Part shown: positions 7,823-61,108 of the stretch, one piece after another | Layout of the letters: every line of letters begins with the position of its first letter | Position numbering within the stretch: position 1 is the stretch's first letter | Assembly (NCBI GenBank): GCA_963792585.1 | Contig: CAWBWI010000001.1 | Coordinates: 961,608-1,025,607, forward strand | Direction: 5' to 3' | Length of the DNA: 64,000 bases | Source: Candidatus Eiseniibacteriota bacterium | GTDB taxonomy: Bacteria; Eisenbacteria; RBG-16-71-46; CAIMUX01; VGJL01 | The notes under the pieces: model-generated | The model's database searches: none | The model's input: only the letters and a program-made list of their open reading frames with translations | What the model was told of the DNA's origin: nothing | Made by a program: the position numbers and the translations under genes

Positions 7823-8691
7823 CTAGCGTCCCTTCTCGCGGTTCTGGAGGATCTCGACGTAGTGGGTCAACTGCCGGACGCGGGGCTTGTCCTGCTGCTT
7901 CGAGTAGATCAAGACCAGGTTTCGCAGCATCCGGACCACGATGTCCCGGCTCGAGGAGGTCGCGATGTACTCCTCCTTGAAGTAGTAGCCGGCTCCGGTC
8001 AGAGTACTGCGCACAGTCCTTGCGGGTAAGCAGCCGCCCACCGTTGTACGGGTCGATGTAGATCTTCAACCTCGCCATCCTCGTACTTGACGAGGAAGTG
8101 GCCCGGCAGGCCGACTCCCCGGACGGGCAGGCCAAGGCGTTCGGTCAGCAGCAGGTAGAGCGCGGAGAGGGTGATCGGGATCCCGGTCCGCGTTTCGAGA
8201 ACGCGGTTCATGAAGCTGTTGTCGGGCTTGTAGTAGTCGGCGGTGTTGCCGGTGAAGTGCAGTTCCTCGAAGAGGTAGCCGTTCACCGCCTGGATGATCT
8301 CATGGGGTTGAATCAGTCCGCGGATCCTCTCGCGAAGAACGGTGGCGAGAGCATCGAGTTGCCGGCGGAAACCATCCCGATCCAACTCCGGATACTCGAT
8401 GCGCGCGATCGCGATGGCGCCGTCTTCGAGACCGAAGTTCTCGTCGCTCCTGCCGGCCAGCGCCTGAAATTCCGCCTCGAGGTGATCGAGTTGGATGCGG
8501 GCCATGATGTGGCGCGCGCGCAGGCGCGTGCGCGGGTCAGGCGACTCGGAAGCCTCGCGGAGGTACACGATCGCGGGCGGGCCGATTTCGAGCAGATGCT
8601 CCCAAACGGTATGAAGCACCTTCACGTCCTCGTCGGCGAGCAATGAAATCAGAGCCCGGTACTCTCGATCGTTCAGAGACTTGGTCGGCAT
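7823..8691 (-). pseudogene. SirB1/UPF0162-type transglutaminase-like + TPR protein, frame interrupted twice
   Basis: MPTKSLNDREYRALISLL..PELDRDGFRRQLDALA..YYKPDNSFMNRVLETRTGIPITLSALYLLLTERLGLPVRGVGLPGHFLVKYEDGEVE is in 7999..8754. It continues as IYIDPYNGGRLLTRKDCAQY (7779..8135), then LTGAGYYFKEEYIATSSSRDIVVRMLRNL..REKGR (7823..8041). Shifts near 8064 and 8005. Confidence 0.7.
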
Positions 8692-8881
8692 CGACACCTC
8701 TCGGCTACGTATTCCAACCCGACTCCCCCACCCAGCCCCTCGCCCACAGTGCAAGGGTACCCCCCGGTGGTGGGCGTCTCAACGCAAATCATCCGGCGCA
8801 TGGATCCGCCGCGGAGCGCAACGTATACTGCTTGACAGGAAAACAGGTTCCGTGCAACCGCGCGCGGAGAAGGAGGTTTGC

Positions 8882-11800: not shown

Positions 11801-11995
11801 CCGACCGAGGTCGAGATCTTCGATCCGGCGGGCCGGAGGGTCCGTTCCTTCGACCCACTGATAGGCGCCGGTCCCCATGCGATCTCCTGGGACGGCCGGA
11901 ACGATGCGGGCATTCGAGTGGCCTCGGGATTCTATTGGCTGCGGACGGCGGGACCCGGCGGCTCCGAGAGGGCCCGCGTCGTGGTCGTCAGATGA
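8882..11995 (+). CDS. Single ORF: M42-family peptidase domain + hydrophobic segment + M1 aminopeptidase N-type domain + FlgD-Ig/T9SS-type C-terminal domain
   Basis: AGGAGG at 8871-8876, then an in-frame TTG at 8882. M42 part: CAHTDHPGF, RAEEDGLFGASA, GLALPLGNYHN..VVHVDDL (about 8882-9940). Hydrophobic segment LLGGLLIAGLIAGTATAG (about 9975-10030). M1 part: GAMENQTMIF, HEVAHQWFG and WLNEGFATYGE. C-terminus FPNPSRGPTTF..GFYWLRTAGPGG..VVVVR. No stop codon anywhere in this frame between the two peptidase domains. Confidence 0.7.
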   Translation: MATRREILRIAGVLASAPTVSYREHEALARIRRELDHAGIDYATDRYGNLLARYRGSRARGRSVAFCAHTDHPGFIVEASARRRAHARWIGGVQERYFPRARVRVETRTGPVRGRVVAYEKGPNGRVARIAITFDREVSPGAIGGWDLTPFAVEGSWIRTKSADDLLGCAAIVCMLKDLVATRPAIDAWGIFTRAEEDGLFGASALAASGVLPRECAFVSLETSRELPCGRLGQGVIVRVGDRMSVFDPAVSGGLLESAEELAKRDRRFRFQRGLMDGGSCEASAFQAFGYAAGGLALPLGNYHNMGEKRTAEEVVHVDDLVGMSRLLPVAAKRIASGRSPLAVLRAKLSKRLPAAKRELIASRNLLGGLLIAGLIAGTATAGPLSDRATPSPPKSGAARPMLEPRGMAEADPLAVYDALRYDISIRIDPPAESIQGSVTMLLRAETDIEAVPVDCGANLTVDSVAVDGSRASFSRPGPDELRIDLSGTLGTGDSVLVAIYYHGGSIPSPFTGFEFFSKHGEGTDEFPVVSTMSEPDFSHAWWPCKDRFDDKALASLTIDAPRGYVVAGFGLGTIEEDPVGDRRRTRWTTAYPITPYLVSFAASNYVSWTGIYTGEDLEPMPLVFYAYPEDSSKAAADWTTTSEAITAFESFFGRYPFRNPTIGVEKLGIVEFPWRSGAMENQTMIFMGEGFVSGDKTFDSVLAHEVAHQWFGDAVTPTSIDHIWLNEGFATYGEALFYEHRNGTAGYRDWMQHIRSPLDFEYRGPLVEPDESFGSTVYRKGGWLLHMLRGVLGDQDFFRALNTYYDRYEYANASTDDFVRAVEETAGSDLRWFFTPWLYGIGRPRIAWDWETDERGSANEVRLLISQTQDPIVYPRGAPQDGAPESFRFPLEVRMFAAGDSSSRTVFVGQRTAAFLIDDVPFRPDSIALDPDQWILREIAPRGAGLRPNAAVAFPNPSRGPTTFIVHVASGAPTEVEIFDPAGRRVRSFDPLIGAGPHAISWDGRNDAGIRVASGFYWLRTAGPGGSERARVVVVR

Positions 11996-11997
11996 AC

Positions 11998-12028
11998 AGG
12001 GGCCTGGTCGACATCGTCGGCGGCCCCT
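11998..12028 (+). terminator. Imperfect GC-rich hairpin just after the peptidase stop codon
   Basis: AGGGGCC (11998-12004) pairs with GGCCCCT (12022-12028), with inner CGAC/GTCG pairing. No U-tract. Confidence 0.25.
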
Positions 12029-12097
12029 CTCCCGCCGGACCGGTTGACGGCTCACAACCGACTCCGTACCGTGAGATTCCAGTCCAATGGAGGTGCG

Positions 12098-13081
12098 ATG
12101 CGTATCGGTGAACTCGAATTCAACCGCGGGATCTTCCTGGCGCCGATGGAGGACGTCAGCGAGCGGCCTTTCCGCCGCCTCTGCCGGCGCTTCGGCGCGG
12201 ATCTCGTGTATACCGAGTTCATCTCCTCGGAGGCCCTGATCCGCCGCGTCGCCGCCATGCACGGCAAGATGCGCCTGGCCGACGACGAGCACCCGGTCGG
12301 CATCCAGCTCTACGGCAACCGGGAAGAGGCCCTGGTCGAGGCGGCCCACATCAGCGAGGAAGCCGGTCCCGATCTGATCGACATCAACTTCGGTTGTCCC
12401 GCCAAGAAGGTCGCCTGCAAGGGGGCGGGCGCAGGCATGCTCCGCGAACCCGACCGCCTGGTCGAACTGGCCGCAGCCGTCGTTCGCGCGGTGAGACTCC
12501 CGGTGACGGTCAAGACCCGGCTCGGTTGGGACTCCGGGTCGATCGTGATCGCCGACCTGGCCCGCCGGTTGGAGGATGTCGGCGTCGCGGCGATCGCCAT
12601 CCATGCCCGCACACGGCAACAGGCGTTCAAGGGAGATGCGGACTGGAGTTGGATCGCGCAGGTCAAGCAGGCGGTCTCGATCCCCGTCATCGGGAACGGG
12701 GACGTCCGGTCTCCGCAAGATGTGGCGCGGATGTTCGAGACGACCGGCTGCGACGCGGTGATGATCGGTCGGGGGGCGATCGGGCACCCGTGGCTTTTCG
12801 AGCGGGCGAAGGCGTTTCTGGCGACCGGTGTCGATCCCGGCCCGCCGCCGATGCGCGAGCAGGTCGAGGTCTACTACGACTTCCTCGCCGATTCCATCGC
12901 GGAGAAGGGCGAGCGAAAGGGATTGCTCGAGTCGCGCCGCCAGCTGAGCACGATCCTCAAAGGGCTCCCCCATGTCGCCGAGGTTCGCAGCGCGGCGATG
13001 CGGGAGACGACCGTCGAGGGAATCCGCGAACTGCTCGATCGGTTCCTCGAGGAGCAGGCTGAGGCGGAGGTTCGGGTGTGA
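12098..13081 (+). CDS. dus: tRNA-dihydrouridine synthase
   Basis: MRIGELEFNRGIFLAPMEDVSERPFRRLCRRFGADLVYTEFISSEAL..IDINFGCPAKKV..VTVKTRLGWD..IAIHARTRQQ: typical Dus TIM-barrel motifs. The start is taken at the internal ATG of ORF 12044..13081. Confidence 0.85.
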   Translation: MRIGELEFNRGIFLAPMEDVSERPFRRLCRRFGADLVYTEFISSEALIRRVAAMHGKMRLADDEHPVGIQLYGNREEALVEAAHISEEAGPDLIDINFGCPAKKVACKGAGAGMLREPDRLVELAAAVVRAVRLPVTVKTRLGWDSGSIVIADLARRLEDVGVAAIAIHARTRQQAFKGDADWSWIAQVKQAVSIPVIGNGDVRSPQDVARMFETTGCDAVMIGRGAIGHPWLFERAKAFLATGVDPGPPPMREQVEVYYDFLADSIAEKGERKGLLESRRQLSTILKGLPHVAEVRSAAMRETTVEGIRELLDRFLEEQAEAEVRV

Positions 13082-13482
13082 TCCCCCGCGCTTGGCCGCG
13101 AGCTTGGGAGCCGTTGGTCGCGGCGGCGGCCGCTGCGCTTCCCCATGCCCGGAGCCGTCCCCGGCGCGCGGCCGCGATCCTCGACGCTGACGGAGGGGTC
13201 CACTGCGGGGTTTCGATCCAGGCGATCCACCCACCCGGAGCTTCCGTCTGCGCCGAACAGGTGGCCGTCGCCTCGATGTGCGCGGATGGCGCGCGTGCCC
13301 CGATCCGACTGGTTGTGCTCTCCCCTCGGGTTCCGGAGCGGCCGTGCGGTCGCTGTCTTCAGTTCCTGCTGGAGTTCAGCGAATCGGTCGAGATCCGTTG
13401 GGGCACTCCGGGGCACGAGCACGGACGATCGACCGTCGAACGTCTCCTTCCGCTGGCCTTCCGCGACTATCGGGGTGTCTGA
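13078..13482 (+). CDS. cdd: Cytidine deaminase
   Basis: Zinc-ligand motifs CAEQVA and PCGRCLQF. 134 aa. GTG start overlaps the dus stop (GTGA). Confidence 0.75.
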   Translation: MIPRAWPRAWEPLVAAAAAALPHARSRPRRAAAILDADGGVHCGVSIQAIHPPGASVCAEQVAVASMCADGARAPIRLVVLSPRVPERPCGRCLQFLLEFSESVEIRWGTPGHEHGRSTVERLLPLAFRDYRGV

Positions 13483-14261
13483 TGCCGCCCGATTCATCCG
13501 GAGGCTTCACCCCTCTGTCCGCGAAGTTCCGTGAGGAAGCCGTCTCCGCCGCGAGTTGGCTGGCCGAGCACGAGGGACAATCCCCCCCCGAATCCGTGGG
13601 GCAAACCGTGCGGGCTCTGGCCGGATGCATCGACGAGACGCTCCTGGCGCCGACCGCCACCCCCAGCGCCATCGTCATGCTCTGTGCGGGAGCCCGCGAC
13701 TCGGCCTTCGCTGCGGTCTGCGTCTCCCCCATCCATGTCGCCCTCGCGGCCAGGGAGCTCGCCGGAACCCGTGTCGCTGTCGCCACGGTGGTCGGCTTCC
13801 CCAGCGGCGCCCACCGATCGGAAGTCAAAGCGGCCGAAGCGGCCCGGGCGGTTGAGGACGGCGCCCTGGAGATCGACATGGTGATTCCCATTGGACTCCT
13901 GAAGGCCCGGATGGATGATGCGGTTCGGGCCGACATCGCCGCCGTCGTCAAGGCCTCGTCCGGACGGACGGTGAAGGTCATCCTCGAGACCGCCGCCCTC
14001 GAGGACGAGGAGAAGGTCCGAGGCGTTCACCTCGCCCGCGAGGCCGGCGCGATCTTCGTCAAGACATCGACCGGCTTCGGGCCCGGCGGCGCGACGGAGG
14101 CCGACGTCGCCATCCTGCGCCGCGAGGCGGGCCTCATCATGGGCGTCAAGGCGTCCGGCGGCATCCGCACCGCGGTCGCCGCGCTCCGCATGGTGGGCGC
14201 CGGGGCCGATCGGATCGGTACCAGTTCGGGCGGCGCGATTCTTGCGGCCGTCCGCTCTTGA
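13482..14261 (+). CDS. deoC: Deoxyribose-phosphate aldolase
   Basis: VATVVGFPSGAH, LEIDMVIPIG, VKVILETAAL and the Schiff-base lysine context IFVKTSTGFGPGGAT. ATG overlaps the cdd stop by 1 nt (TGATG). Confidence 0.85.
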   Translation: MPPDSSGGFTPLSAKFREEAVSAASWLAEHEGQSPPESVGQTVRALAGCIDETLLAPTATPSAIVMLCAGARDSAFAAVCVSPIHVALAARELAGTRVAVATVVGFPSGAHRSEVKAAEAARAVEDGALEIDMVIPIGLLKARMDDAVRADIAAVVKASSGRTVKVILETAALEDEEKVRGVHLAREAGAIFVKTSTGFGPGGATEADVAILRREAGLIMGVKASGGIRTAVAALRMVGAGADRIGTSSGGAILAAVRS

Positions 14262-14289
14262 TCGAACTTTTCTCATGCCCGCTTTCGGC

Positions 14290-14319
14290 TTGACCCTTCC
14301 TCGGACCCGCTGGTAGCTT
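14290..14319 (+). promoter_or_regulatory. Candidate sigma70-type promoter (TTGACC - 18 nt - TGgTAGCTT)
   Basis: -35-like TTGACC at 14290-14295 and extended -10-like TGGTAGCTT ending at 14319, about 30 nt upstream of the 14352 start. Motif match only. Confidence 0.3.
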
Positions 14320-14351
14320 TCCCCGCGATTGGCAGAACGTCAGACGAGGGA

Positions 14352-17273
14352 ATGAAGAAGAGAAGACTGGCCGGTTGGTTCCGCGATTCGCGCCTTCCAC
14401 ATCGAGCGGGAGGCGTCTGTTTGCTTCATCTGTTCCTCCTCTCATTGCTCGCCTTCGCGGTCACGGCGAAGGGTGCGGGCAGGATCGAGGGACGTATCCT
14501 CGACGCCGAGAACGGCAAGCCCCTCGCCTACGCAAACGTGGTCCTCCTCGGCACCGCCAAGGGGGCGATGAGCCAAGCCGACGGCGGATTCGCCATCACC
14601 CCCCTCGATGCCGGCAGCTACGAGTTGCAGGTCAGCTTCGTCGGCTACGAGACCGTCAAGCAAACCGTCCAGCTCGAGGAAGGCCAGACGCTGACCGTCA
14701 CATTCCGCTTGAAGTCCTCCGCCGTGAGGACCCGGGAGGTGACGATCAAGGCGGATCGTCCCCTCGTCGACGTCAAGCGCGCCTCCACCATTCGCACGTA
14801 CGACGAGTCGGAGCTCAAGGCGCTCGCCAGTCAGCCGACGCTCGACAGCGTGGTCGAGCAGCAACCGGGGGTCACCAAGGACAACGATCAGATCCACATC
14901 CGCGGCGGACGCGCCGACGAGACGCTCTACATCGTCGACGGCGTGAAACAACGCGACCTGCTCTCCGGCGATTCCAAGGGTTCGACGATCGGATCGCGGT
15001 CGGTCGCCGAGGTAAACATCATCACCGGAGGATTCGACGCGAAATACGGCCAGGCGCTGTCGGGGATCGTCGAGGCGAAGCTGAAGGAGGGAACCGAGCA
15101 GTTCCACGGCTACTTCGGATACTCAACCGATCGCGGGATCGACGACCAGACGGTCGATCTCTTCGATTTCCAGATCTCGGGCCCACTCCAGGTGATGCCG
15201 CGCGTCGCGAAGCTTCTGGGCGCGGATGACGGCGGAAAGATGAAGTTCTTCCTCGACGTCTCCGCCGATCTGAGCAACGGATGGCTTCCTTCGATCCGCG
15301 ACCTCCCGGGCGACAAGAAGCTGCACTCTTCGTATAGCGATCGGATGTTCGGGAACCGCTACCGGTACGAGAACTTCTTCTACCCCCGCGCGAACAACGA
15401 TTGGAGGCTTCTCTTCAAGACGAGCTGGCGCGCGACGACATCGGACAAGTTCGATCTCTCGTTCACGAAGAGCTTGAGCTTCGATCAAGGTTTCGGACAG
15501 GCGGACATCGCCGACATCAACCGCAACGAGATCAGCTACCCGTGGAACTGGGCGAATCGACTCGACCACTACTACACCGACAGCCAGGATCAGAACGCGT
15601 TCTCATTCGTATGGAACAAGGGCGTGACGCGCAATCTCGTGAGCGCCATGACCCTCACTCGATTCTTCACATCGAGCCACAGGGACGTGGCGGGCAAGCT
15701 GTGGACCGGCTACGACGCGCGCACCGACACCGACGCTCCCGACGAGAACGTGTCCCCCTATTTCCGGGACGTCGGGGACGCCTCCGACTACCGCGATCGG
15801 TTCGTGGAGACCCTGAGCCTCTCCAACGACTGGTCCTTCACGCGCAACCGTCACAAGTTCGATTGGGGCTGGGGCCACCAGCTCGAGAACGTCCAGTACC
15901 TCACCCTGACGGCAACCACCATCGATCTTCCCGACAAGCCTCTCGGCGACGAGTTCGACCTCTTCCACGTCCACCCATCTTCGGGGGCGATGTACGTGCA
16001 GGATCGGCTCGAGTACGAGAGCCTGATCGCCGGGATCGGCCTGCGCTACGACTACTGGTTCCCGGGCAAGGAAGTCGAGGACCTCTTCGACAACTGGCAG
16101 ACGCTGAACCGGCCGACCATCAATGCCGCAACACGTGAGGAGTTCATCGGGGACACCCACGGGCTGTTCGGCCGACGATTCAAGGGACATCTCTCTCCGA
16201 GGCTCCAGATCAGCCATCCGATCACGGCACACGACAACCTATTCTTCAACTATGGCCACTTCACGCAGCGTCCCGCCTACTTCTACGTCTTCGCGAAGTC
16301 GAGTTCGCAGTCGTCCGAGGAGTTCCCGCGCATCGGGAATCCGAATCTCAACCCCGAGATTTCCGTGCAGTACGAGCTGGGCGGGGGCCATCAGTTCAAA
16401 CCCGATCTCGCCACGAAGCTCTCCCTCTTCTACAAGGACATCTACGACTACCCGACCTCGACGACCCTCGTTCTCAAGGAACGCCGGACGAGCCGATCGA
16501 ATTTCTTCATCTATCGAAACCTGGACTACGCACGCTCCACGGGATTCGAGATGGAGCTGCGCAAGCGTCGGCTTGGGCACTGGAGCGGGGCGGTCGCTTA
16601 TACATATTCCGTGGCCAAGGGAAAGAGCTCCGACCCGAACAACCTGAAGCTCGTTCAGGAGAGCGGCGGTGACGCCCGGGAAACGGATCTTGGCGAGATG
16701 TTCATGTGGTGGAATCGGCCGCACAAGTTCACGATCTGGTATTCCTGCGCTTCCGAGCGCGGCGACAGGATGCGGCTGTTCGGAAGGCGCCTGCCGGACG
16801 ACTGGAACCTGAGCGTCTACACGCTCGTCCAGTCGGGGCGCGCCTACACGCCGACCAACAGCTTCGGGGACAAGACCGGGCAAGACTACTCGAAGAACGG
16901 TCCTTTCGAGACGACGACCAACCTGAAGCTCCGGAAGGGATTCCGCCCGTTCGGCCTCAACATGGAGGCGACCCTCGAGGTCTTCAACCTCTTCAACCGG
17001 CGGACTGCGTTGTCGGTCGACCCGGCCACCGGCAAGCTCTGGAAGCCGGGCAAGGGATCCCTCAACTCGGCCTACGAGAATCCTGCGAACCTGAAGCTCT
17101 CGGATGAGGATCTGATCGAGGCCACCGGAGCCAGCGTCGGCGCCGATCAGTCGATCGAAGAGGTGGCCGCGGGGATCCGATCCACGATCCAGGCCACCGT
17201 CGATCGATATGCGAACCCGTCGTACCGGGCCGCGCCACGGGCCGTGCGCGTCGGCGTGGGGGTCGAATGGTGA
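14352..17273 (+). CDS. TonB-dependent-receptor-like outer-membrane barrel with CarboxypepD_reg-like N-domain
   Basis: 973 aa with a signal peptide. GRIEGRILDAENGKPLAYANVVLLGT..GGFAITPLDAGSYELQVSFVGYE is the carboxypeptidase-regulatory-like fold. Plug-like IHIRGGRADETLYIVDGV. Long Y/G/N/D-rich barrel region ending in an aromatic residue (..VRVGVGVEW). Confidence 0.8.
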   Translation: MKKRRLAGWFRDSRLPHRAGGVCLLHLFLLSLLAFAVTAKGAGRIEGRILDAENGKPLAYANVVLLGTAKGAMSQADGGFAITPLDAGSYELQVSFVGYETVKQTVQLEEGQTLTVTFRLKSSAVRTREVTIKADRPLVDVKRASTIRTYDESELKALASQPTLDSVVEQQPGVTKDNDQIHIRGGRADETLYIVDGVKQRDLLSGDSKGSTIGSRSVAEVNIITGGFDAKYGQALSGIVEAKLKEGTEQFHGYFGYSTDRGIDDQTVDLFDFQISGPLQVMPRVAKLLGADDGGKMKFFLDVSADLSNGWLPSIRDLPGDKKLHSSYSDRMFGNRYRYENFFYPRANNDWRLLFKTSWRATTSDKFDLSFTKSLSFDQGFGQADIADINRNEISYPWNWANRLDHYYTDSQDQNAFSFVWNKGVTRNLVSAMTLTRFFTSSHRDVAGKLWTGYDARTDTDAPDENVSPYFRDVGDASDYRDRFVETLSLSNDWSFTRNRHKFDWGWGHQLENVQYLTLTATTIDLPDKPLGDEFDLFHVHPSSGAMYVQDRLEYESLIAGIGLRYDYWFPGKEVEDLFDNWQTLNRPTINAATREEFIGDTHGLFGRRFKGHLSPRLQISHPITAHDNLFFNYGHFTQRPAYFYVFAKSSSQSSEEFPRIGNPNLNPEISVQYELGGGHQFKPDLATKLSLFYKDIYDYPTSTTLVLKERRTSRSNFFIYRNLDYARSTGFEMELRKRRLGHWSGAVAYTYSVAKGKSSDPNNLKLVQESGGDARETDLGEMFMWWNRPHKFTIWYSCASERGDRMRLFGRRLPDDWNLSVYTLVQSGRAYTPTNSFGDKTGQDYSKNGPFETTTNLKLRKGFRPFGLNMEATLEVFNLFNRRTALSVDPATGKLWKPGKGSLNSAYENPANLKLSDEDLIEATGASVGADQSIEEVAAGIRSTIQATVDRYANPSYRAAPRAVRVGVGVEW

Positions 17274-18268
17274 CCCGTCGCATCTCGGTCCTCCACCTGC
17301 TGCTCGGACTCGCCGCCATCAGCGCGTCCGCCGCCAACGCCCAGACGAGCCTGGGCGGCCAGCGCGCAGGAACATCCAGCGGAACATTCCTCAAGATCGG
17401 CGTCGACGCCCGCGGAGTCGCCCTCGGGGGCGCCTACGTCGCCCTCGTCGAAGGGCCGTTCGCACCATTCTACAATCCGGCGGGTATCTCCAAGATGCGC
17501 GACCCCGCCGGAGCATTCAGCTATGCCCGCTGGCCGGCCGACATCAGCGTCTTCGCATTCTCCTTCGGCCGCCCGTGGGGGGACGCAGGCTCCGCCCTCG
17601 CCGTGTCCGCCGAGTATGTGGGAACCTCGCTGGACGAAACCGACGAATACCATCCCCTGGGGACCGGTCGCACCTTTTCCTATAGCGATCTCCTGCTCGG
17701 ATTCAGTGCCGCGCGTCCGTTCACCGACCGCTTGTCGATCGGCGTCTCGACGAAGTTCTTCCGTGAGGACCTCGGATCCGGGGTCGGCGGACCGGTCACC
17801 CAGAGCTGGCTCGTCGACGCGGGGACTTGTTATCTGATCGGGGCGTTGAATGGTCGGCTCGCCATCAGCCTTCTGAACTTCGGACCCGACCTCAAGCCGG
17901 AAGGATCGTTCTACAGCGTCGTGCGCCAGGATCAGGTCGACTACGCAAGCTTCTCGGCCCCGACGAGTTTCCGGATCGGCCTCTCCCTCGAGCCGTATCA
18001 CCGCGGCCCGCACGGTCTGCTCCTGGCGAGCGAGGTCGTTCACGTCGCCGACAATCAGGAATCGTTCCGCGGAGGCCTCGAGTACTCCTACCAGGGGCGC
18101 TATTACGCACGCGCCGGGATGGATCCGGGCGCGGACGCGGCGAAGTTCTCCGCCGGCCTGGGTCTCTCGATCCCCCTCGCGGGCTCGAACCTGAAGATCG
18201 ACTATGCCTACACGGACGGGGGCCCCCTTCTGGCGATCCATCGCTGGTCGGTGGTGATGCCGTTCTGA
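17267..18268 (+). CDS. PorV/PorQ-family (FadL-like) outer-membrane beta-barrel protein
   Basis: 333 aa with a signal peptide ending SASAANA. N-terminal motif FLKIGVDARGVALGGAYVALVEGPFAPFYNPAGIS. Terminal ..HRWSVVMPF. ATG overlaps the upstream stop by 7 nt (ATGGTGA). Confidence 0.65.
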   Translation: MVTRRISVLHLLLGLAAISASAANAQTSLGGQRAGTSSGTFLKIGVDARGVALGGAYVALVEGPFAPFYNPAGISKMRDPAGAFSYARWPADISVFAFSFGRPWGDAGSALAVSAEYVGTSLDETDEYHPLGTGRTFSYSDLLLGFSAARPFTDRLSIGVSTKFFREDLGSGVGGPVTQSWLVDAGTCYLIGALNGRLAISLLNFGPDLKPEGSFYSVVRQDQVDYASFSAPTSFRIGLSLEPYHRGPHGLLLASEVVHVADNQESFRGGLEYSYQGRYYARAGMDPGADAAKFSAGLGLSIPLAGSNLKIDYAYTDGGPLLAIHRWSVVMPF

Positions 18269-18276
18269 GGTACGGG

Positions 18277-19230
18277 ATGGGAAGGATGCGGGAGCGGATC
18301 CTGGGGATCATGGCCGCCGTCGTGGTGCTCGCCGGTTGCGGTCAGAAGTTCACCCTTCCGCCACAACCCGAGCCCGGCCGGATTCCGACCCCCGGAACCT
18401 ACAACCTCGACAAGGTCTGGCACCTTCCGTCACCGACCGACGTGGTCCTGCGCGGCAGCTACCTCTTCGTGATCGAGGAGCATGCGCGGGTGAACGTCTA
18501 CCTGAGCCGCCAGAAGGAGCCGGTCCATCCGAGTTTCATCGGGACCTTCGATGGTCTGACCCGACCGATCCAGCTCTGCCTCGCGAAGCGGGACTCGACA
18601 TTCCTCTTCGTGGCCGATGCCGCGGACATGACGATCAAGCGTTACTACTTCCGCGGGGGTCCTTCGCTCTTCAGCTTCACCGACACGTCGTGGACCTCCA
18701 TCGACGGGATCGCCGCGGACAGCGACCTGAACGTCTACGTCTCCTGTGCCGTCCGCGACAGCAGCGTGATCTACAAGTACAACGCCCTGGGCAAGAGGGT
18801 GCGGCTGATCTCCGGCGCCGGCACCGGTCAGGGGTTCTGCATCCGCCCGCACGGCCTGGCCTTCGTCAACAACTCCGTCTGGGTTTCCGACCCTGGCAAT
18901 TCCCGCGCGCAGCGTCTCCACTCAGATTCGACGAACGCCGCCTACCCCGGGAGGCCGATCGGCGCGGTGTTCCCGCTCGCGGAGCCGGTCGACGTCGCGA
19001 CGGATCCTGCGGGCCAGAGGATCTTCGTCGTGGAGGAACAGGGCGACCGCATCCTGCGATTCCAGCCGACGGGGGCGCTCGAGGACACCGTCTACACGCA
19101 GGCACGCAAGGAGACGATCGTCGATCCGCCCATCGACGCGCCCCGCTATATCGCCGCCGACGACAGCCTCGTATTCCTGCCCGATTCGGCGAACAACCGG
19201 ATCGTTGTCGTGAGGCTCACGAAACAATGA
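18277..19230 (+). CDS. Lipoprotein with six NHL-type beta-propeller blades
   Basis: Internal start MGRMRERILGIMAAVVVLAGC (lipobox) within ORF 17827..19230. Six repeats of a hydrophobic-V/F-V-D/E pattern: YLFVIEE, LFVADAAD, VYVSCAV, VWVSDPGNSR, IFVVEEQGDRILRF, LVFLPDSANNRIVVV. Confidence 0.65.
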   Translation: MGRMRERILGIMAAVVVLAGCGQKFTLPPQPEPGRIPTPGTYNLDKVWHLPSPTDVVLRGSYLFVIEEHARVNVYLSRQKEPVHPSFIGTFDGLTRPIQLCLAKRDSTFLFVADAADMTIKRYYFRGGPSLFSFTDTSWTSIDGIAADSDLNVYVSCAVRDSSVIYKYNALGKRVRLISGAGTGQGFCIRPHGLAFVNNSVWVSDPGNSRAQRLHSDSTNAAYPGRPIGAVFPLAEPVDVATDPAGQRIFVVEEQGDRILRFQPTGALEDTVYTQARKETIVDPPIDAPRYIAADDSLVFLPDSANNRIVVVRLTKQ

Positions 19231-21190
19231 GGCGCCCCATCACCATATTGACGTTCTGCGTCCTCTGGATCGCGGCGCTGCCGATCGCCCGAGCCGACGA
19301 CGACGGCCTTCGCGTCTACCTGAACGGCAAATGGCAGGCGCTCGACGCCGCCGCGCGGATCGACACGCTGATCTCCCTGCGCGTCACCTCCGGCAACAAC
19401 ATGGGACTCACGCTCTACAACACAGGCTTCGTCGGGACGAACCTCGCCGACCGCTCCCCGTCGATGGAGTTTCCGCTGCGGAGCACTCAGGAACATCTGG
19501 TCCGGGCCGGACTCTGGGTGGGGGGCTCACGACCAGCGAGCCGCCCGAGAGTCTGGTGTCGACCGCGACGATCGACGGATCCGTTGGGAGCTTCGATCCC
19601 AACTCGGTGAGCGAGTTCTTTCCTTCGGCGACCGAGATCCGGGAACGCTCGACGTTGCCGAACAGCCGCTACTTCAGCCCCGACGCCCGCAGCGAGCAGG
19701 ACTTTCAGCTCGCCTACTTCGACAGCCACCACCACACCAATCCGGAGCACCACCCTCTGGGGGTCAAGGTGGAGCTGGAGACCATGCTCTACAGCTTCGA
19801 GCCGTTCGACGCGATCGTGATCGCCAACTACAAGATCATCAATACCAAGCCCGACGATCCGATCTACAACCTCTATGTCGGCCTCTACTCGGAGATGGCC
19901 TCCGGCTGGAAGGATGGGCACGCCGAGTGGCCCCCGAGCGGTTGGTTCCGGAAGAAGGACATCGCCTACGTCGATTCGCTCCGCCTCGTGACCGAGCATC
20001 ACTACAACCTGGACAACGGCAACTGCCCGTCGTGGGGCGGCGCGCTCTTGCTCGGCACCCGGCCGAAGCCAATCGGCGAGATGACCGTCTCGTTCAACTG
20101 GTGGAACTGGGACCCGAACGGCAACCTCTCCGGGACCCCGCACGTCGACGCCGAGCGTTTCGCCACGATGAGCAACGGCTCGATCGACGCGACCGCCGGC
20201 CTCGAGGCGCCGAACAACGACCCGGTCACCCTCCTCTCGGTCGGCCCCTTCGAAGTGCTGGAGCCCGGTGACACGATCCAGGTCTCGTTCGCATTCGTCG
20301 GTGGCCAGCCTTCGCCCAGGGACGGCCGGAGCGCCGAGCAGGACATCGCCTTCAACGCTCAGTGGGCGCAGAAGGCATTCGACCTGAATTTCAACATCCC
20401 CGTTCCTCCCCCCTCCCCCACCATGCGGGTATTCCCGGGGCATGACCGCCTGACGCTGCGTTGGGCTCGATCCCCCGAGGACTTCCTCGATCCGAAGAGC
20501 CACCAGAAGGACTTCGAGGGCTACCGGATCTACGTGAGCGAGGAGAAGGAGGAGGAAGGCTTCCGGATGATCCGACAGGTCGACAAGGTGGACAGCCTCC
20601 TCGAGAACACCGGACTCGAGGCGGTGCGCGACCCGCAGACGATAGACGGCGTGGACTACGAGTACCGCTACGACATCGAGAGCCTGCGGGACGGGTTCAA
20701 GTACTGGACGACGATCACGTCCTTCGACACCGGCACGAACGAGGTCCCGCCCCTCGAGAGCGGCCTGGCGCAGGGCCGTACCTTCGCCATCCCCGGCGCG
20801 GGCACGAAGTTCGAGAACAAGGTGAAGGTCTTTCCGAACCCGTACCGAGGAGACGCCGTCTGGGACGGATCCCTGGCCCGCGACCGGTATCTCTGGTTCG
20901 TGAACTTGCCGAAACGCTGCACGATCCGGATCTACACCCTCTCGGGCGATCTGGTCGACACGATCCCGTTCGATGCGGCGACCTACAACGCGACGGAAAT
21001 CCGCGGCATCTTCGATCCGACCGACGTCCAGAACCCGGACAACGACGTCCCGGTGCTCTCCGGCGGCATGGCGGCATGGGACCTTGTCACACGCAACGAT
21101 CAGGGGATTGCCTCGGGGCTGTATATCTTCTCGGTCGAAGACCTCGAGACCGGCAAAACTCAGCTCGGCAAGTTCCTGGTCCTGAAGTAG
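19227..21190 (+). CDS. Large exported protein of unknown function with FN3-like region and extended FlgD-Ig/T9SS-type C-terminal domain; one frame break
   Basis: Signal peptide MRRPITILTFCVLWIAALPIARA (in ORF 18336..19610); ATGA overlap with the upstream stop. The reading continues in ORF 19331..21190 after the G6 run at 19520-19525. FEGYRIYVSEE. C-terminus KVFPNPYRGD..GLYIFSVEDLETGKTQLGKFLVLK. Confidence 0.6.
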
Positions 21191-21203
21191 GAATGGTTCA
21201 CCC

Positions 21204-22691
21204 ATGAGGATTCGGATCCGTCTCGCCCTGTTCCTCCTCCTGCTCGGGGCCCTGCCCGCGTGCGAGGAGAACAAAGGGGTCTATCCGCCGAACGTGGCGC
21301 CGAAGACCTATCTGTCCGTCGTCGGCGACAGCCTGTCGTCGACCGACTATCGCAAGATCCTCCACTGGTGGGGCAGCGACCCCGACGGCGTGGTCGGCGG
21401 CTACCTGATCCGGTGGAACGGCGGCTGGGTCCCCCCTACGGGAACGGGCCGGGAGTATGCCGGCGAGCTGTATGCGTTCACGACGGCGACACAGGACACA
21501 TTCCCCGTGCCGCTCGACGGGACCGGCGCAGTGCGGAATTTCATCGTGCGCGCGGTGGACGCCGAGGATCTGGTCGACCCCGTCGGCGTGAGCCAGAGTT
21601 TCCCTCTCCACAACAACGCTCCCTCGCTCGCGTGGAATGCCGAGATCCCGAGACCGACGAGCAGCTACCCCGCCGTCGCATTCGGCTTCCGTCCGACCGA
21701 CTTCGACGGACGCGAGACGGTGATCAGCTACCGGATCTGGCTCGACGACGACTCCCTGAACGCGCGGACCGTATCCGACACGATCGTCGGCCTCTACCCC
21801 GCGGACTTCGGAGGCGATCATACAACCCGGGAACGAACGGTCCACGTACGCGCATACGATGACGCCCGCGCTGCGAGCAACACTCTCTCGCACAGCTGGA
21901 CGGTCCAGTGGCCGCAGACCGAATGGCTCAAGATCGATCAGGTCCCCCCTACCGGAAACCTCGCCAACTGGGATCGGCAATTCTACGCGGCGGTCATCGA
22001 CTCCGTCTTCGGGACCGCTCTCGACCGGATCGACCTGTACAATGGTCCCGACTTCACGACGAGCCAGGAGATCGGTCCGCTCTTGTCGCTCTTCCGAGGC
22101 GTCCTCTGGCTCACCGGGCCCCATGTGGCGTCGAACGAATCGAAGATGGCCCGCAACCTGGCGCTTGCGGAGCAGGGCATCCGTGAGTACGTCGAGAACG
22201 GGGGACGGGTGCTCCTGATCGGCCAGTCCGTCCTCGGCTCCGGCGGCGGACTCTCGGACGCGTTCGCCACTGAGGTGCTCGGGATCCCCGAGTTCTTCGA
22301 GCAATGGACCGACATCCAGGATCCGTCGAGCGGCTCGACGAATGTTCCGATGAGCCATCCCGTGTACTACCGCAGGCTGGACGGGGGTCCCGACAGCCTC
22401 CTCGTCTACAACATTCCCAACTATGTCGATTACTTCCGGGAACCCATCGCGCCGGCGGCCGGCCGTTACTGGGTCGCACCGGGGATACTCCGGACGGAAA
22501 CCGGCAACGCAATCGTCCCCGGCCAGGACCTCGATCCCGCCTATGCCGCCGTCACGGCGCCGTACGGTCAGGGCAGCATCACGGTCGTCACGACATCCTA
22601 TGCCCGGCTCTACGACGTCCTGCGCAACCCCGAGTGGAAACAGACGATCGGTGAGGGAATCCGACTATTCCGTGAGGCGCTCCAGCCCTAA
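21204..22691 (+). CDS. Lipoprotein of unknown function
   Basis: MRIRIRLALFLLLLGALPAC lipobox. The N-half has Ig/FN3-like WWGSDPDGVVGGYLIRW and DFDGRETVISYRIWLDD stretches. The C-half (ENGGRVLLIGQSVLG) has no motif I can assign. Confidence 0.55.
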   Translation: MRIRIRLALFLLLLGALPACEENKGVYPPNVAPKTYLSVVGDSLSSTDYRKILHWWGSDPDGVVGGYLIRWNGGWVPPTGTGREYAGELYAFTTATQDTFPVPLDGTGAVRNFIVRAVDAEDLVDPVGVSQSFPLHNNAPSLAWNAEIPRPTSSYPAVAFGFRPTDFDGRETVISYRIWLDDDSLNARTVSDTIVGLYPADFGGDHTTRERTVHVRAYDDARAASNTLSHSWTVQWPQTEWLKIDQVPPTGNLANWDRQFYAAVIDSVFGTALDRIDLYNGPDFTTSQEIGPLLSLFRGVLWLTGPHVASNESKMARNLALAEQGIREYVENGGRVLLIGQSVLGSGGGLSDAFATEVLGIPEFFEQWTDIQDPSSGSTNVPMSHPVYYRRLDGGPDSLLVYNIPNYVDYFREPIAPAAGRYWVAPGILRTETGNAIVPGQDLDPAYAAVTAPYGQGSITVVTTSYARLYDVLRNPEWKQTIGEGIRLFREALQP

Positions 22692-22715
22692 CTCCTTTAT
22701 TAAGAACCCTTAACA

Positions 22716-22744
22716 TTGACTGGGAGCCCCGGATGAGCTAGAGT
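22716..22744 (+). promoter_or_regulatory. Candidate sigma70-type promoter TTGACT - 17 nt - TAGAGT in an AT-rich island
   Basis: TTGACT at 22716-22721 and TAGAGT at 22739-22744 with a 17-nt spacer. It lies in the only AT-rich stretch of the 145-nt intergenic region, upstream of the 22837 gene. Confidence 0.4.
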
Positions 22745-22836
22745 ACGCGTGGCATTTCCACGGGGGAAATCCCCGCGTGGCTCGGTCCGTTCGCTCATCT
22801 TGACCCACCCACTACCGAACCGGGAGGACTCGCACG

Positions 22837-24790
22837 ATGCGTCTGTCGCGCACTCTGGTCCTGCTGGCGAGCATCCTGTTGCTTGCCGGTGCGGCCATGG
22901 CAGAAGACTCGATCTATTCGATCCAGCTCGGCCTGATCAACAACAACACGCCGGTGGATGTCCAGGGCGTCGTCGTCACCGCCGTCGGCCGCTTCGGGGT
23001 CTTTGTTCAAGAACCGACGCCGGATCCGACCTATGGAAGGCAATACAGCGGGATCTGGGTCTATACCAACACCGTTCCCACCGTCCATCGCGGCGACATC
23101 GTCAACGTCCGCGGGACCTATTACGAGTACTTCGACTTCAGCGAGATCGACGCCTCTCCAGCCTACAACGGCACGGTCACCTTTACGGGTCTCGGCACGG
23201 TTCCGGATCCAGTGAGCGTCACGATCCCCGAGGTCAACAACCAGGGGTCATTCTCGGAGCCGTACGAGAGCGTCCTGATCCGCGTCGACCGAGAGGACAA
23301 CACACTCTTTGCAGGCAGGCTCGACACCCACAACGAGTGGCACCTGAAGCGCGATCAACCCGTCACCTCGCCCTACCTGCAGATGGACCAGTATTCCGCC
23401 CTCCCGACCGGCGACTTCACGTACGACGTGCCTGACTCCGGAGCGGCGCTCACCTTCGCGCAGGGCATCCTGGTCTACAACTTCAGCGAGTACAAGCTCG
23501 CCCCTCGAAACTGCGATGAGGACCTGGGCACCGCCTGCCGCCCGAAGCTCCGCGGCGCCTACGGGACTTCCGCGACCGGCGTGGCCGTCCAGTTCGGCGT
23601 CCCCGTCACGCAGCAATCGGCGGAGACCGTGAGTAACTATCAGCTCGGTAGCGGACTCCTGGTGTACCAGGCGCACATCGATCCCTCCAACCACAAGCGC
23701 GTATTCCTGGTCACCGATAACCTGGGCAACGGCGAGGAAGAGACGATCACCGTTCGCAACATCGTCTCCGAGAGCGGAGCGGTGATGAGCGGTCCCGAGA
23801 CCGCGGCTTTCCGCACGGGCATCACGCCGATCGCATTGATCCAGCAGGTGGATGACCCGGCGGTGACCGATGTCTCCCCCTTGATCAACGAAGTCGTCAC
23901 GATCTCCGGCCGGATCTCCGCCCTCGAGGGAACGAACTACTACTACCTCCAGGACGATGACGGCGGGGCATGGGACGGGATGTACGTGCGCGTCGCGAAG
24001 GGCACATCCCCGCTCAAGGTCGGGGACAGGGTTCATGTCGCCGGGCAGGTGACCGAGTACTTCGGCATGACGGAGCTCGAATTACAAGTCCGGCATCGAC
24101 TACCTGCTTCCGCTCGGTGAGACCGGTCCGGTTACCACGAATGTCCTCCACACGAGCGATTTGAAGTACCGCGATACCGCCAAGGGCGCCGAGCCTTGGG
24201 AAGACTGCCTCGTCCGTCTGGAGTCCGCAACGCTCGACTCGCTCGCGGGCGTCGCGGGTCCGGCGTTCGGCGAGTGGCTCCTCTTCCAGCAGGGCTACCC
24301 CGACACCGCCAAGTTCGACATCAACGGCATGAACGGCAACAAGGCCTACGCCGCGTGCATCGGCGACGTCATCAACCTGACGGGCATGCTCGCCTACACG
24401 TTCGATCAGTATCAGATCTGGCCCCGGTCCGGTCGTGGGATCGACATCCAGGTCATCTACGACAACCCCGCGTGCCAGCCGACGGCTGCGCCCGAGAACG
24501 GCCCCTTCTCCGCGGGTCCTGCCTTGGAAAGCGTCCCCAACCCCTTCAACCCGAAGACGACGATCCGATACACCCTGCCCGAGGCCGGCTCCGTTCGCCT
24601 CGAAATCGTCGATCCCTCCGGAAGGATCGTCCGGACGCTCGTCGACCGTGTCGTGCTGAGCGCCGGAACGCAGCAGTCCGTCTGGGACGGCCGCGACGAC
24701 GCCGGGCGACCGGCCGGAACCGGAACATACTTCGCGAAGCTCCGGACCGAGGAAGGAAGCGTCTCGAACAAGCTCATTCTCCTGAAGTAG
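22837..24790 (+). CDS. Exported, internally duplicated protein (OB-fold-like ExeM/NucH-N-terminal-type modules) with FlgD-Ig/T9SS-type C-terminal domain; one frame break
   Basis: Signal peptide MRLSRTLVLLASILLLAGAAMA. ORF 22837..24120 continues in the frame of ORF 24161..24790 (..EYFGMTELE / NYKSGIDYLLPLGETGPVTTNVLHTSDLKYRD..), with the junction near 24075-24085. C-terminus VPNPFNPKTTIRYTLPEAGSVRLEIVDPSGRIV..GTYFAKLRTEEGSVSNKLILLK. Confidence 0.65.
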
Positions 24791-24821
24791 CTTCGATCCG
24801 CGCGCACCGTGCGAACGAATC

Positions 24822-24850
24822 GGCCCCGTCGCGTCATGCGCGGCGGGGCC
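24822..24850. terminator. Strong GC-rich hairpin between convergent genes (bidirectional terminator candidate)
   Basis: GGCCCCGTCGCG-TCATG-CGCGGCGGGGCC: 12-bp stem (one G-U) and 5-nt loop. It lies between the stop at 24790 (+) and the stop at 24878 (-). Confidence 0.5.
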
Positions 24851-24877
24851 ATCTCGTGTCTCGCTCTGGTTTCGCGA

Positions 24878-25591
24878 TCAGCGATCGTCCCGATCGATGT
24901 AGTCCCGGATGTCGTAGACCGTCGTCTTCTTCCGCCGGCGCCGATGGAGCGGGCCCCAGGGGACGATCCAGAGGAAGAGCAGGCCGAAGAGGATGCCACC
25001 CAGGTGGGCGAGGTGCGCGATGCCGCCCCCGTGGCCCTGTCCCCTGTCCATCACCGAGGGCAAGGAGGAGACGAATTCGAACGCGCCGAAGATGATCACG
25101 AAGTACTTCGCCGGCATCGGGAAGAGGAACCAGATCAAGATCGGGCGGTTCGGCCAACGGATCGCGAAGGCCAGGAGCAGGCCGTAGATCGCGCCGCTCG
25201 CGCCCACGATCGGAGTGAAGGAGTGCGGCTGAAAGACCGCGTTCGTGATCCCGGCGCCGATCCCGGTGACGAAGTAGTACTGGAGGAAGCGCTTGGCGCC
25301 CCATTCATGCTCCAGCTCGCTGCCGAACATCCAGAGAGCCAGCATGTTGAAGAGGATGTGCATGAACGAGCCGTGCAGGAACATGTAGGTCACGATCTGC
25401 CAGATGAACCCGTGAAAGAGCGCGGCCGGCACCAGGCCGAGGTATCCCAGTGCGAGCTCATAGAATGTCGGATTCAACTTCTCTGCGATCGTCATGCCCA
25501 GGAAGAAGATCACGTTCCAGGCGATGAGAAGACGGACCATCGTCGAGAGGGACCCGCCAAGGGAGAACCCGCCGCCGCCCCGGTAGCTCAT
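24878..25591 (-). CDS. Rhomboid-family intramembrane serine protease
   Basis: HILFNMLALWMFG, the catalytic IVGASGAIYGLL, and HLAHLGGILFG. About six hydrophobic segments. Confidence 0.85.
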   Translation of the reverse strand: MSYRGGGGFSLGGSLSTMVRLLIAWNVIFFLGMTIAEKLNPTFYELALGYLGLVPAALFHGFIWQIVTYMFLHGSFMHILFNMLALWMFGSELEHEWGAKRFLQYYFVTGIGAGITNAVFQPHSFTPIVGASGAIYGLLLAFAIRWPNRPILIWFLFPMPAKYFVIIFGAFEFVSSLPSVMDRGQGHGGGIAHLAHLGGILFGLLFLWIVPWGPLHRRRRKKTTVYDIRDYIDRDDR

Positions 25592-43552: not shown

Positions 43553-43582
43553 ATCGAATAAACGCGGAGCTGCATCACTTTC

Positions 43583-43611
43583 TAGGAACTACGCCATCGA
43601 AACGCTATAAT
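43583..43611 (+). promoter_or_regulatory. Candidate promoter with perfect -10 TATAAT (weak -35 TAGGAA)
   Basis: TATAAT at 43606-43611 inside an AT-rich island. GGAGG RBS at 43654-43658 and ATG at 43663. Confidence 0.35.
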
Positions 43612-43662
43612 TGGGGTTTAGGCATTCGAATGGATGGCTTCCCCTCACCTAATGGAGGATCC

Positions 43663-59143: not shown

Positions 59144-59144
59144 C

Positions 59145-61103: not shown

Positions 61104-61108
61104 GCCGA

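Follow-up and report, generated by a model that had tools for sequence, protein, structure and literature searches.

The genome of a Candidatus Eiseniibacteriota bacterium (GenBank assembly GCA_963792585.1, contig CAWBWI010000001.1) carries a tightly packed series of genes for predicted outer-membrane and secreted proteins, and the question it raises is what these proteins do together. The window, by which is meant the whole 64,000 nt stretch of DNA that was analysed (contig positions 961,608–1,025,607, forward strand), has a G+C content of 63–68%, and all coordinates given without a locus name refer to it. The original prediction, made from this sequence without database searches, described five genes between nt 14,352 and 22,691 that might specify a surface-attachment or export/uptake complex. 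The present analysis adds a sixth gene to the set, finds that the six genes stay together in several lineages, and gives about an even chance to the reading that they form a TonB-dependent surface machine which captures and imports extracellular nucleic acid, that is, DNA or RNA used as food.

A conserved six-gene module

The list of open reading frames (ORFs) and the codon-position G+C of the plus strand both back the five genes first described at nt 14,352–22,691. Gene 1 (nt 14,352–17,273) specifies a TonB-dependent-receptor-like outer-membrane barrel of 973 amino acids (aa), with CarboxypepD_reg, Plug and barrel domains and a terminal W. It overlaps gene 2 (nt 17,267–18,268), which codes for a PorV/PorQ-family barrel of 333 aa ending in F, by 7 nt. 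Gene 3 (nt 18,277–19,230) codes for an NHL-repeat lipoprotein of 317 aa with the lipobox LAGC and an isoelectric point (pI) of 8.3. The product of gene 4 (nt 19,227–21,190) is a secreted protein of 654 aa after repair of its reading frame, with a signal peptide, a beta-sandwich, an FN3 domain and an extended domain like the C-terminal domains (CTDs) of type IX secretion system (T9SS) cargo, while gene 5 (nt 21,204–22,691) encodes a 495 aa lipoprotein (lipobox LPAC, then EENKG) that combines two FN3-like domains with an alpha/beta domain of no assigned class. The packing of these genes was verified in every detail (ATGGTGA overlap at nt 17,267–17,273, ATGA overlap at nt 19,227–19,230, gaps of 8 and 13 nt), and the ORFs of genes 1, 2, 3 and 5 were found where they had been placed and with the lengths given for them. 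The unit does not end at nt 22,691, where the original description stops, since a sixth conserved gene follows on the plus strand at nt 22,837–24,790. Gene 6 specifies a secreted protein of 650 aa (again after repair) with two OB-fold modules of the ExeM/NucH nuclease type and a T9SS type A CTD.

A collection of genomes was scanned with a profile of gene 5, which returned 80 loci, and these were searched with all six proteins (tblastn). Conservation of gene order, which had been proposed as a check on the operon, was borne out. The order 1-2-3-4-5-6 occurs in essentially every Eisenbacteria-type locus of sufficient length (~40 loci), with gene 5 identities down to ~26%, and the order 4-6-5-1-2-3 is found in Kryptonia, Balneolaceae and Flavobacteriales. 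Clustering of the ORFs in 15 loci of rearranged order showed the same families to be adjacent and the block 1-2-3 to be invariant. A single locus labelled Chlorobiaceae (L080) has the rearranged order minus gene 6, and two loci from Ignavibacteriota carry partial sets. The wider neighbourhood in Eisenbacteria (dus, rhomboid, SpoIIE and other genes) is syntenic too, so that conservation within this group alone is weak evidence; it is the persistence of the set in other lineages, intact though rearranged, that argues for a functional unit. As the same six genes lie adjacent in ~55 loci from several lineages, their clustering is far beyond chance and, judged by gene order, they are a conserved outer-membrane functional unit. 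The module also appears, from the genomes compared, to be core to Eisenbacteria. The view that it is an uncharacterised system stands as well: no description of it was found in the literature on type IX secretion in Eisenbacteria or on gene clusters combining PorV, TonB-dependent and NHL proteins.

Two of the six genes are interrupted in the window. Gene 4, described as a single gene of 654 aa, spans 1964 nt, and its frame shifts at a run of six G (nt 19,520–19,525), so that an ORF search yields nt 19,331–21,190 only; the length of 654 aa holds for relatives and after repair, and the single ORF does not. With one G added, the gene encodes 654 aa that share 99% identity with P0026, a public metagenome protein, and agree with it residue for residue across the shift site. 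The contigs that encode P0026 itself (L081–L084) are ~95% identical to the window (94.8% nucleotide identity over 17.2 kb for L083) and carry all module genes intact. Comparison with L083 revealed isolated single-base indels at nt 19,520, 24,079 and 25,830, each breaking an ORF. The second is a one-base insertion (~24,079) that splits gene 6 into nt 22,837–24,120 and 24,161–24,790; the gene is unbroken (~650 aa) in L001, L002, L004, L005, L006 and L081–L084. The third disrupts a bactofilin gene located between the rhomboid and SpoIIE genes, which is intact in L081–L084. This pattern suggests that the three indels are assembly or homopolymer errors and not marks of pseudogenes. Programmed frameshifting in gene 4 was considered and ruled out, because the ~95% identical contigs have one more G and the window shows two further ORF-breaking indels within 17 kb. 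Several other overlapping ORF pairs of the window (for example nt 40,058–41,230/41,005–41,508 and 59,145–61,412/61,109–62,311) may have the same cause.

Proteins of the module

The gene 6 protein consists of a signal peptide, two copies of a ~200-residue module (an internal repeat) and the CTD. In its intact form it matches positions 1–111 of the 546 positions of NF033681 (ExeM/NucH nuclease; E-value 3.6e-20). A profile of its orthologues resembles the region preceding the catalytic domain in PDB entry 9sf8, a protein with an endonuclease/exonuclease/phosphatase (EEP) domain (E-value 1.6e-9), and matches the OB-folds of RPA weakly. Pfam places an OB-fold above cut-off in the Kryptonia orthologue, which also has a weak match to CBM_56, and a lamin-tail domain in that of Balneolaceae. 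No catalytic domain was detected in gene 6 or its orthologues, which gave neither an EEP match in Pfam nor any nuclease domain. On TIGR04183 (cut-off 23) the CTD reaches 32.6 bits in the window fragment and 31.6 bits in the intact copy, and on Pfam FlgD_ig (cut-off 27) it reaches 34.5–37.1 bits. Gene 6 is the only gene of the module with a clear type A CTD.

The domain assignment of gene 1 was confirmed by Pfam, with all scores above their cut-offs: CarbopepD_reg_2 78.5 bits, Plug 33.3 bits (cut-off 23.9) and OMP_b-brl_3 43.2 bits (cut-off 27). On PF00593 the orthologue from Kryptonia reaches 84 bits, and in gene 1 an EVTIKAD-type motif, a candidate TonB box, can be read by eye after the CarboxypepD_reg domain. 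None of the TonB-receptor subfamilies of NCBIfam reaches its cut-off with gene 1; on the SusC/RagA model (TIGR04056) it scores 51.8 bits against a cut-off of 368, in a match limited to the N-terminal 160 residues. TonB/ExbBD genes were not found among the window genes scanned, nor did any neighbouring protein scanned match SusD/RagB. The absence of a SusD partner, already remarked upon in the original prediction, and the unmet SusC cut-off mean that the locus is not a classical polysaccharide utilisation locus (PUL).

Gene 2 scores 137 bits on NF033709, the PorV/PorQ family of NCBIfam (cut-off 90), and its Kryptonia orthologue 232 bits, together with a match to Pfam PorV. It misses the equivalog cut-offs for PorV (40 vs. 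250 bits), PorQ (68.7 vs. 220) and PorV2 (43 vs. 325). The description of this protein as PorV/PorQ-like is upheld at the level of the family, over that of a generic FadL protein, and it is neither a named PorV nor a named PorQ. The gene 3 product was likewise correctly described as an NHL-type lipoprotein, scoring 28.1 bits on Pfam NHL (cut-off 20), and a lipobox is present in nearly all of its orthologues. Its nearest relatives of solved structure in the PDB are the NHL domains of Thin and TRIM71 (E-values 5e-6 to 2e-5), and it is the sole basic protein of the module. NHL domains of the TRIM71 type bind RNA, which offers a lead for gene 3. The Balneolaceae version (L066, nt 15,427–16,719) is ~110 residues longer than that of Eisenbacteria, and in Kryptonia (L077, nt 16,911–17,903) a second NHL-like gene follows the NHL lipoprotein gene of the module.

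Genes 4 and 5 had been presented as lacking a recognisable family, and this proved true of Pfam, NCBIfam and PDB sequence searches; Foldseek returned generic folds only. Gene 4 has no Pfam family match, and its sole NCBIfam match, to the C-terminus of PorZ, is below threshold (E-value 0.003; 5e-5 for the Balneolaceae orthologue). Three motifs seen by eye (PNP, GLYIFSV and KFLVLK) make the C-terminus CTD-like, and no recognised CTD model passes its cut-off. Built on 44 homologues, the AlphaFold model of gene 4 (predicted local distance difference test score, pLDDT, 81.9) has a large beta-sandwich of ~370 residues after the signal peptide, then an FN3 domain and, at the C-terminus, a second beta-sandwich of ~120 residues. 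In Foldseek the first domain weakly resembles the N-terminal beta-sandwich of GH94, GH116, GH15 and GH63 enzymes (template modelling (TM) score ~0.28, root-mean-square deviation (RMSD) 7–12 Å, catalytic domains not covered), and FN3 domains and PorZ are also among the matches. An enzymatic role for gene 4 was not accepted on this likeness, which is a weak beta-sandwich similarity to the N-domains of glycoside hydrolases and phosphorylases. The family is large, with 2560 cluster representatives at E ≤ 0.001. A Flavobacteriales orthologue gave 1706 matches, all described as 'hypothetical' and one of them from the cultured Phaeocystidibacter marisrubri; the UniRef label of the cultured orthologue (P0404) is gliding-motility C-terminal-domain protein.

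Nothing usable was retrieved from the PDB by sequence, whether the query was gene 4, the profile of gene 5 or the C-terminal domain of the latter. Gene 5 has no match in Pfam or NCBIfam either, and the same is true when its C-terminal domain is searched alone. Its AlphaFold model (pLDDT 86.4) contains two FN3-like domains followed by an alpha/beta domain; FN3 tandems dominate the Foldseek matches, and the alpha/beta domain (residues 241–495) stays unclassified, a separate Pfam scan returning only the insignificant DUF4350 (0.06) and GATase_3 (0.3). Acidic residues follow the lipid-anchor Cys (CEENKG) in gene 5 and in most orthologues, a feature that serves as a surface-export signal in Bacteroidota (as summarised in PMC12578637). 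The N-terminal part of gene 5 (~340 residues) also has a paralogous lipoprotein-like family of ~516 aa without a family name, found at about nt 10,000–12,100 in each of the loci L043–L073 (Bacteroidia, Chitinophagales, Sphingobacteriaceae); in 15 of 16 loci purN is the next gene, amid housekeeping genes (fabG, dnaN) and without a link to the module. These Bacteroidia loci were accordingly rejected as ddb-like DNA-utilisation loci. Multihaem, peptidase and sortase roles were also considered for the module and rejected, no such domain or motif being found in scans or sequences.

Neighbouring genes and the likely substrate

The statement that the locus contains no nameable enzyme is correct for nt 14,352–22,691 and fails just outside, where the strand of the module carries a cytidine-deaminase-like (cdd-like) gene and deoC immediately before gene 1. 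These flanking genes of nucleoside and nucleic-acid catabolism had been overlooked, and they suggest both a substrate and an analogue, the ddb locus of Bacteroides. The cdd-like gene (nt 13,078–13,482, plus strand, 134 aa) overlaps the stop codon of dus (nt 12,044–13,081, plus strand) by 4 nt and the start of deoC by 1 nt; deoC (nt 13,482–14,261, plus strand), specifying a deoxyribose-phosphate aldolase of 259 aa, ends 90 nt before gene 1. The translated cdd-like gene shows the zinc motifs CAE and PCGRC, and its near-identical copy in L081 matches the cytidine deaminase models of NCBIfam at an E-value of 1e-14, below their cut-offs. The deoC ORF of the window matches Pfam DeoC, and its counterpart in L081, at 96% identity, obtains 237.5 bits on TIGR00126 (cut-off 117.3).

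In ~15 loci the module has a cdd-like homologue no more than a few kb away. In the deep-branching loci L028, L036 and L040 it is found downstream of the module and on the opposite strand (~13,750–16,630, minus strand), so the association survives rearrangement. The module is preceded by deoC in 14 separate loci of Eisenbacteria type. Other lineages have other neighbours: in five Flavobacteriales loci an endonuclease I gene with a T9SS CTD (Pfam Endonuclease_1, E-value 7e-32) comes directly after the NHL lipoprotein gene, and in six Balneolaceae loci a type I phosphodiesterase/nucleotide pyrophosphatase (NPP) is encoded downstream, also after the NHL lipoprotein gene. Because these lineage-differing neighbours share one theme, and the module has an OB-fold protein of nuclease type, the gene contents taken together suggest extracellular nucleic acid as the substrate.

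Promoter-like sequences

A candidate promoter, TTGACC-N18-TAGCTT, had been placed at nt 14,290–14,319 (plus strand), in the 90 nt gap between deoC and gene 1. A scan for the sigma-70 consensus failed to detect it; in its favour, L002, a diverged locus, has kept both hexamers and their spacing, and 15 of 31 Eisenbacteria-type loci show the pattern TTGAC-N17-19-TAnnnT ahead of gene 1. The consensus scan did find a promoter-like TTGACT-N17-TAGAGT at nt 22,716–22,744 (plus strand), in the 145 nt gap before gene 6, which shares its hexamer type with the sites upstream of gene 1. In the recurring element TTGAC(C)-N17-19-TAGnnT upstream of gene 1 in L001–L023, TG often stands two bases ahead of TAG, and the element may, by its recurrence, represent a promoter type of the lineage. 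Predicted folding of the gap before gene 6 is no stronger than that of shuffled sequence, and an Rfam scan of nt 11,900–25,000 returned no riboswitch or other RNA element above threshold.

Function of the module

The domain content of the proteins, the conservation of the six genes and the lineage-specific neighbours are direct observations. Read as a machine for nucleic acid uptake, the module would work as follows. Gene 6 would be exported by the T9SS, and its two nuclease-type OB-fold modules would bind DNA or RNA. The CTDs of genes 4 and 6 would be held by the gene 2 barrel, such that both proteins stay on the cell, as PorQ holds PorZ, and the lipoproteins of gene 3 (the NHL propeller) and gene 5 would cap or scaffold the transporter in the manner of SusD, BtuG and DdbD in Bacteroidota. 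The nucleic acid would be cut by enzymes that differ between lineages, and the products would cross the outer membrane through gene 1, with energy from TonB, into the periplasm. They would then be passed on to catabolism, in Eisenbacteria possibly by way of the adjacent cytidine-deaminase-like enzyme and DeoC. What we infer in this scheme is that the parts assemble physically, that gene 2 retains the CTDs, which substrate is taken and in which direction transport runs. Of the two roles originally offered, surface attachment or export/uptake, uptake is favoured by the Plug domain of gene 1. Export is less likely for the same reason, and because Flavobacteriales are expected to encode the canonical T9SS attachment components (PorU, PorV, PorZ and PorQ) elsewhere. 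The idea that the PorV-like barrel partners the neighbouring CTD proteins fits a notion published as a hypothesis, in which cognate PorV-like barrels protect and retain CTDs (PMC10202324). We propose more tentatively, and consider less probable than uptake as such, that a PorV-family barrel here couples T9SS-delivered, CTD-retaining binders of DNA or RNA to a TonB-dependent transporter, which would make the module a previously unrecognised machine.

Several observations weigh against nucleic acid uptake. A secreted nuclease is absent from the window locus and from the other Eisenbacteria loci, and deoC adjacency could be inherited context rather than a functional link in that group, given that its whole neighbourhood is syntenic. 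With a pI of ~4.4, the OB-folds of gene 6 are acidic, which disfavours simple charge-based binding of DNA, and sugars are also among the ligands that OB-folds can bind. Gene 4 has an N-terminal domain similar to beta-sandwiches found in glycoside hydrolases and phosphorylases. DUF5689, the lid domain of the ddb locus, had no Pfam match in genes 4–6 (E-values up to 5) or genes 1–3 (up to 0.1), and no riboswitch or regulator was found that would link the module genes to nucleotides.

One alternative is TonB-dependent uptake of a glycan or other non-nucleic-acid polymer, with the module acting as a SusD-less, PUL-like system with T9SS-displayed binding proteins. Gene 1 is built like a SusC-type transporter, OB-folds and FN3 domains are known from carbohydrate-binding proteins, and to the GH94, GH116, GH15 and GH63 likeness of gene 4 can be added the weak CBM_56 match of the Kryptonia gene 6 orthologue. 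We nevertheless consider this reading unlikely: in none of the lineages examined is there a glycoside hydrolase, lyase, esterase or SusD in or beside the module, the gene 4 similarity is weak (TM score 0.28, RMSD 7–12 Å) and without a catalytic domain, and the neighbours that recur are enzymes of nucleic acids and nucleosides. The module could instead serve the T9SS itself, as a specialised sorting or attachment sub-complex in which genes 2 and 4 act on a subset of CTD cargo like PorQ/PorZ or PorV/PorU, the large barrel and the lipoproteins being structural. Gene 2 belongs to the PorV/PorQ family, PorZ recurs in both the sequence and structure matches of gene 4 (weakly, at the CTD, in the former), gene 6 carries a type A CTD, and a T9SS is likely to be present since the window encodes further CTD proteins. 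A role of this kind would also suit a module that is apparently a core part of Eisenbacteria genomes. Tight binding of a FadL-like barrel to another barrel has a precedent in BamA-BamG of the Bacteroidota BAM complex, where a surface lipoprotein is bound as well (PMC12578637); this precedent bears on the uptake scheme too. Against a T9SS role stands the Plug domain, typical of TonB-dependent importers, and scans of the six proteins turned up neither a peptidase nor a sortase domain. Such a sub-complex would also be an extra in Flavobacteriales, which are expected to have PorU, PorV, PorZ and PorQ, and it leaves the OB-fold cargo and the nuclease, NPP and deoC neighbours unexplained; its probability is accordingly small.

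The remaining alternative keeps DNA as the substrate and changes its fate, making the module the outer-membrane step of natural transformation and not of feeding. The ddb locus is evolutionarily related to RA0C_RS04915/RS04920 of Riemerella anatipestifer, which are essential for natural transformation and include a barrel annotated as CarboxypepD_reg (PMC12478041, PMC8459023), and an OB-fold protein without a nuclease domain, as predicted for gene 6, could pass DNA on intact. The genes beside the module, however, act in catabolism (deoC, cdd-like, NPP) or are destructive, like the secreted endonuclease I, a DUF5689 partner is missing, and there is no comEC, dprA or comF among the annotated window genes, the scan having covered part of the genes in the window. 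Transformation is therefore the most doubtful of the explanations weighed here, and very improbable.

The interest of nucleic acid uptake lies in its substrate. Large amounts of phosphorus, nitrogen and carbon reside in the extracellular DNA and RNA of soils, sediments and water, and to our knowledge the passage of these molecules across the outer membrane is poorly known for most bacteria. Not until 2025 was a TonB-dependent DNA-utilization locus first described, and this for gut Bacteroidales alone. If the reading is true, a second and differently built system would extend the utilisation of DNA or RNA to uncultured and environmental groups, namely Eisenbacteria, Kryptonia, Balneolaceae, marine and freshwater Flavobacteriales, and the metagenome-assembled genome labelled Chlorobiaceae. 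Unnamed families, such as that of gene 4 with its more than 2500 cluster representatives, would gain names and testable roles. A PorV-family barrel would be seen at work inside a nutrient-uptake complex. Under the more tentative proposal that this barrel couples T9SS-delivered binders to the transporter, the module would be the first case of a T9SS building part of an import complex, and a further architecture for moving nucleic acid across the outer membrane would stand beside pilus-based competence and DdbCD.

Other genes in the window

Upstream of dus, one ORF (nt 8681–11,995, plus strand) combines an M42 aminopeptidase, an M1 aminopeptidase (N-terminal and catalytic domains) and a FlgD_ig-type CTD; from its domains it is probably an unusual fused double peptidase and T9SS cargo. 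A sortilin/BNR-repeat protein with a Por_Secre_tail CTD is specified at nt 43,366–46,230 (plus strand). The stretch of lowest G+C in the window (0.625) holds a DDE_Tnp_1_4 transposase gene (nt 48,121–49,524, plus strand). Ordinary envelope genes are represented by a BatD-family gene (nt 31,038–32,804, minus strand) and by TamB-like and Omp85/POTRA genes lying side by side (nt 55,095–61,412, minus strand).

Comparison with known systems

The ExeM/NucH nucleases share with gene 6 their N-terminal OB-fold module, which is duplicated in gene 6, and the Balneolaceae orthologue has the lamin-tail domain in common with them as well; they differ from gene 6 in possessing the EEP catalytic domain. The attachment pairs of the T9SS (PorV-PorU, PorQ-PorZ and PorP/SprF with type B cargo) resemble the module in that a 14-strand, FadL-like barrel of the PorV family occurs beside proteins whose CTD it possibly retains. 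Gene 2 fails the PorV, PorQ and PorV2 equivalogs, gene 4 lacks both beta-propellers and a peptidase domain, and the barrel-CTD pair sits here within a transporter locus. With the equivalog cut-offs unmet, and no sortase or propeller protein of that kind, the module is not a canonical T9SS attachment complex.

A beta-propeller lipoprotein encoded beside a transporter, as gene 3 is beside gene 1, recalls BtuG. The module agrees more generally with SusCD, BtuBG and the alternative lids of Bacteroidota (Price et al., 10.1101/2023.03.17.533168) in placing a transporter gene next to lipoprotein genes, and the acidic motif of gene 5 is like the export signal of such surface lipoproteins. It departs from these complexes in having no SusD, and in its two lipoproteins, two CTD proteins and second barrel.

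The nearest functional analogue, by the annotations compared, would be ddbABCDEF of B. thetaiotaomicron, whose products include the TonB-dependent DdbC, three nucleases and DdbD, a DUF5689 lid that has a p202-like DNA-binding fold (PMC12478041). DdbC and its DNA-binding-like lid are needed for the use of DNA in Bacteroides (PMC12478041). Gene 1 shares the CarboxypepD_reg annotation of the Riemerella barrel, and a specific kinship with DdbC is at most a possibility. In common with the ddb and Riemerella systems, the module is a multi-gene outer-membrane locus built around a barrel of TonB-dependent type, with a surface protein predicted to bind DNA, surface lipoproteins, a link to deaminase and nucleobase catabolism and, in the Flavobacteriales relatives only, secreted nucleases. 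The putative binder differs in being an OB-fold protein displayed by way of a T9SS CTD and not a lipoprotein, the Eisenbacteria locus has no nuclease, and the ddb loci so far described have no PorV/PorQ-family barrel, no NHL lipoprotein and none of the families of genes 4, 5 and 6. Since DUF5689 and an Eisenbacteria nuclease are lacking, and genes 2–6 belong to families outside ddb, the module is not a member of the ddb family. It is probably a TonB-dependent utilisation locus, for nucleic acids, that recruits T9SS cargo through a PorV-family barrel of its own.

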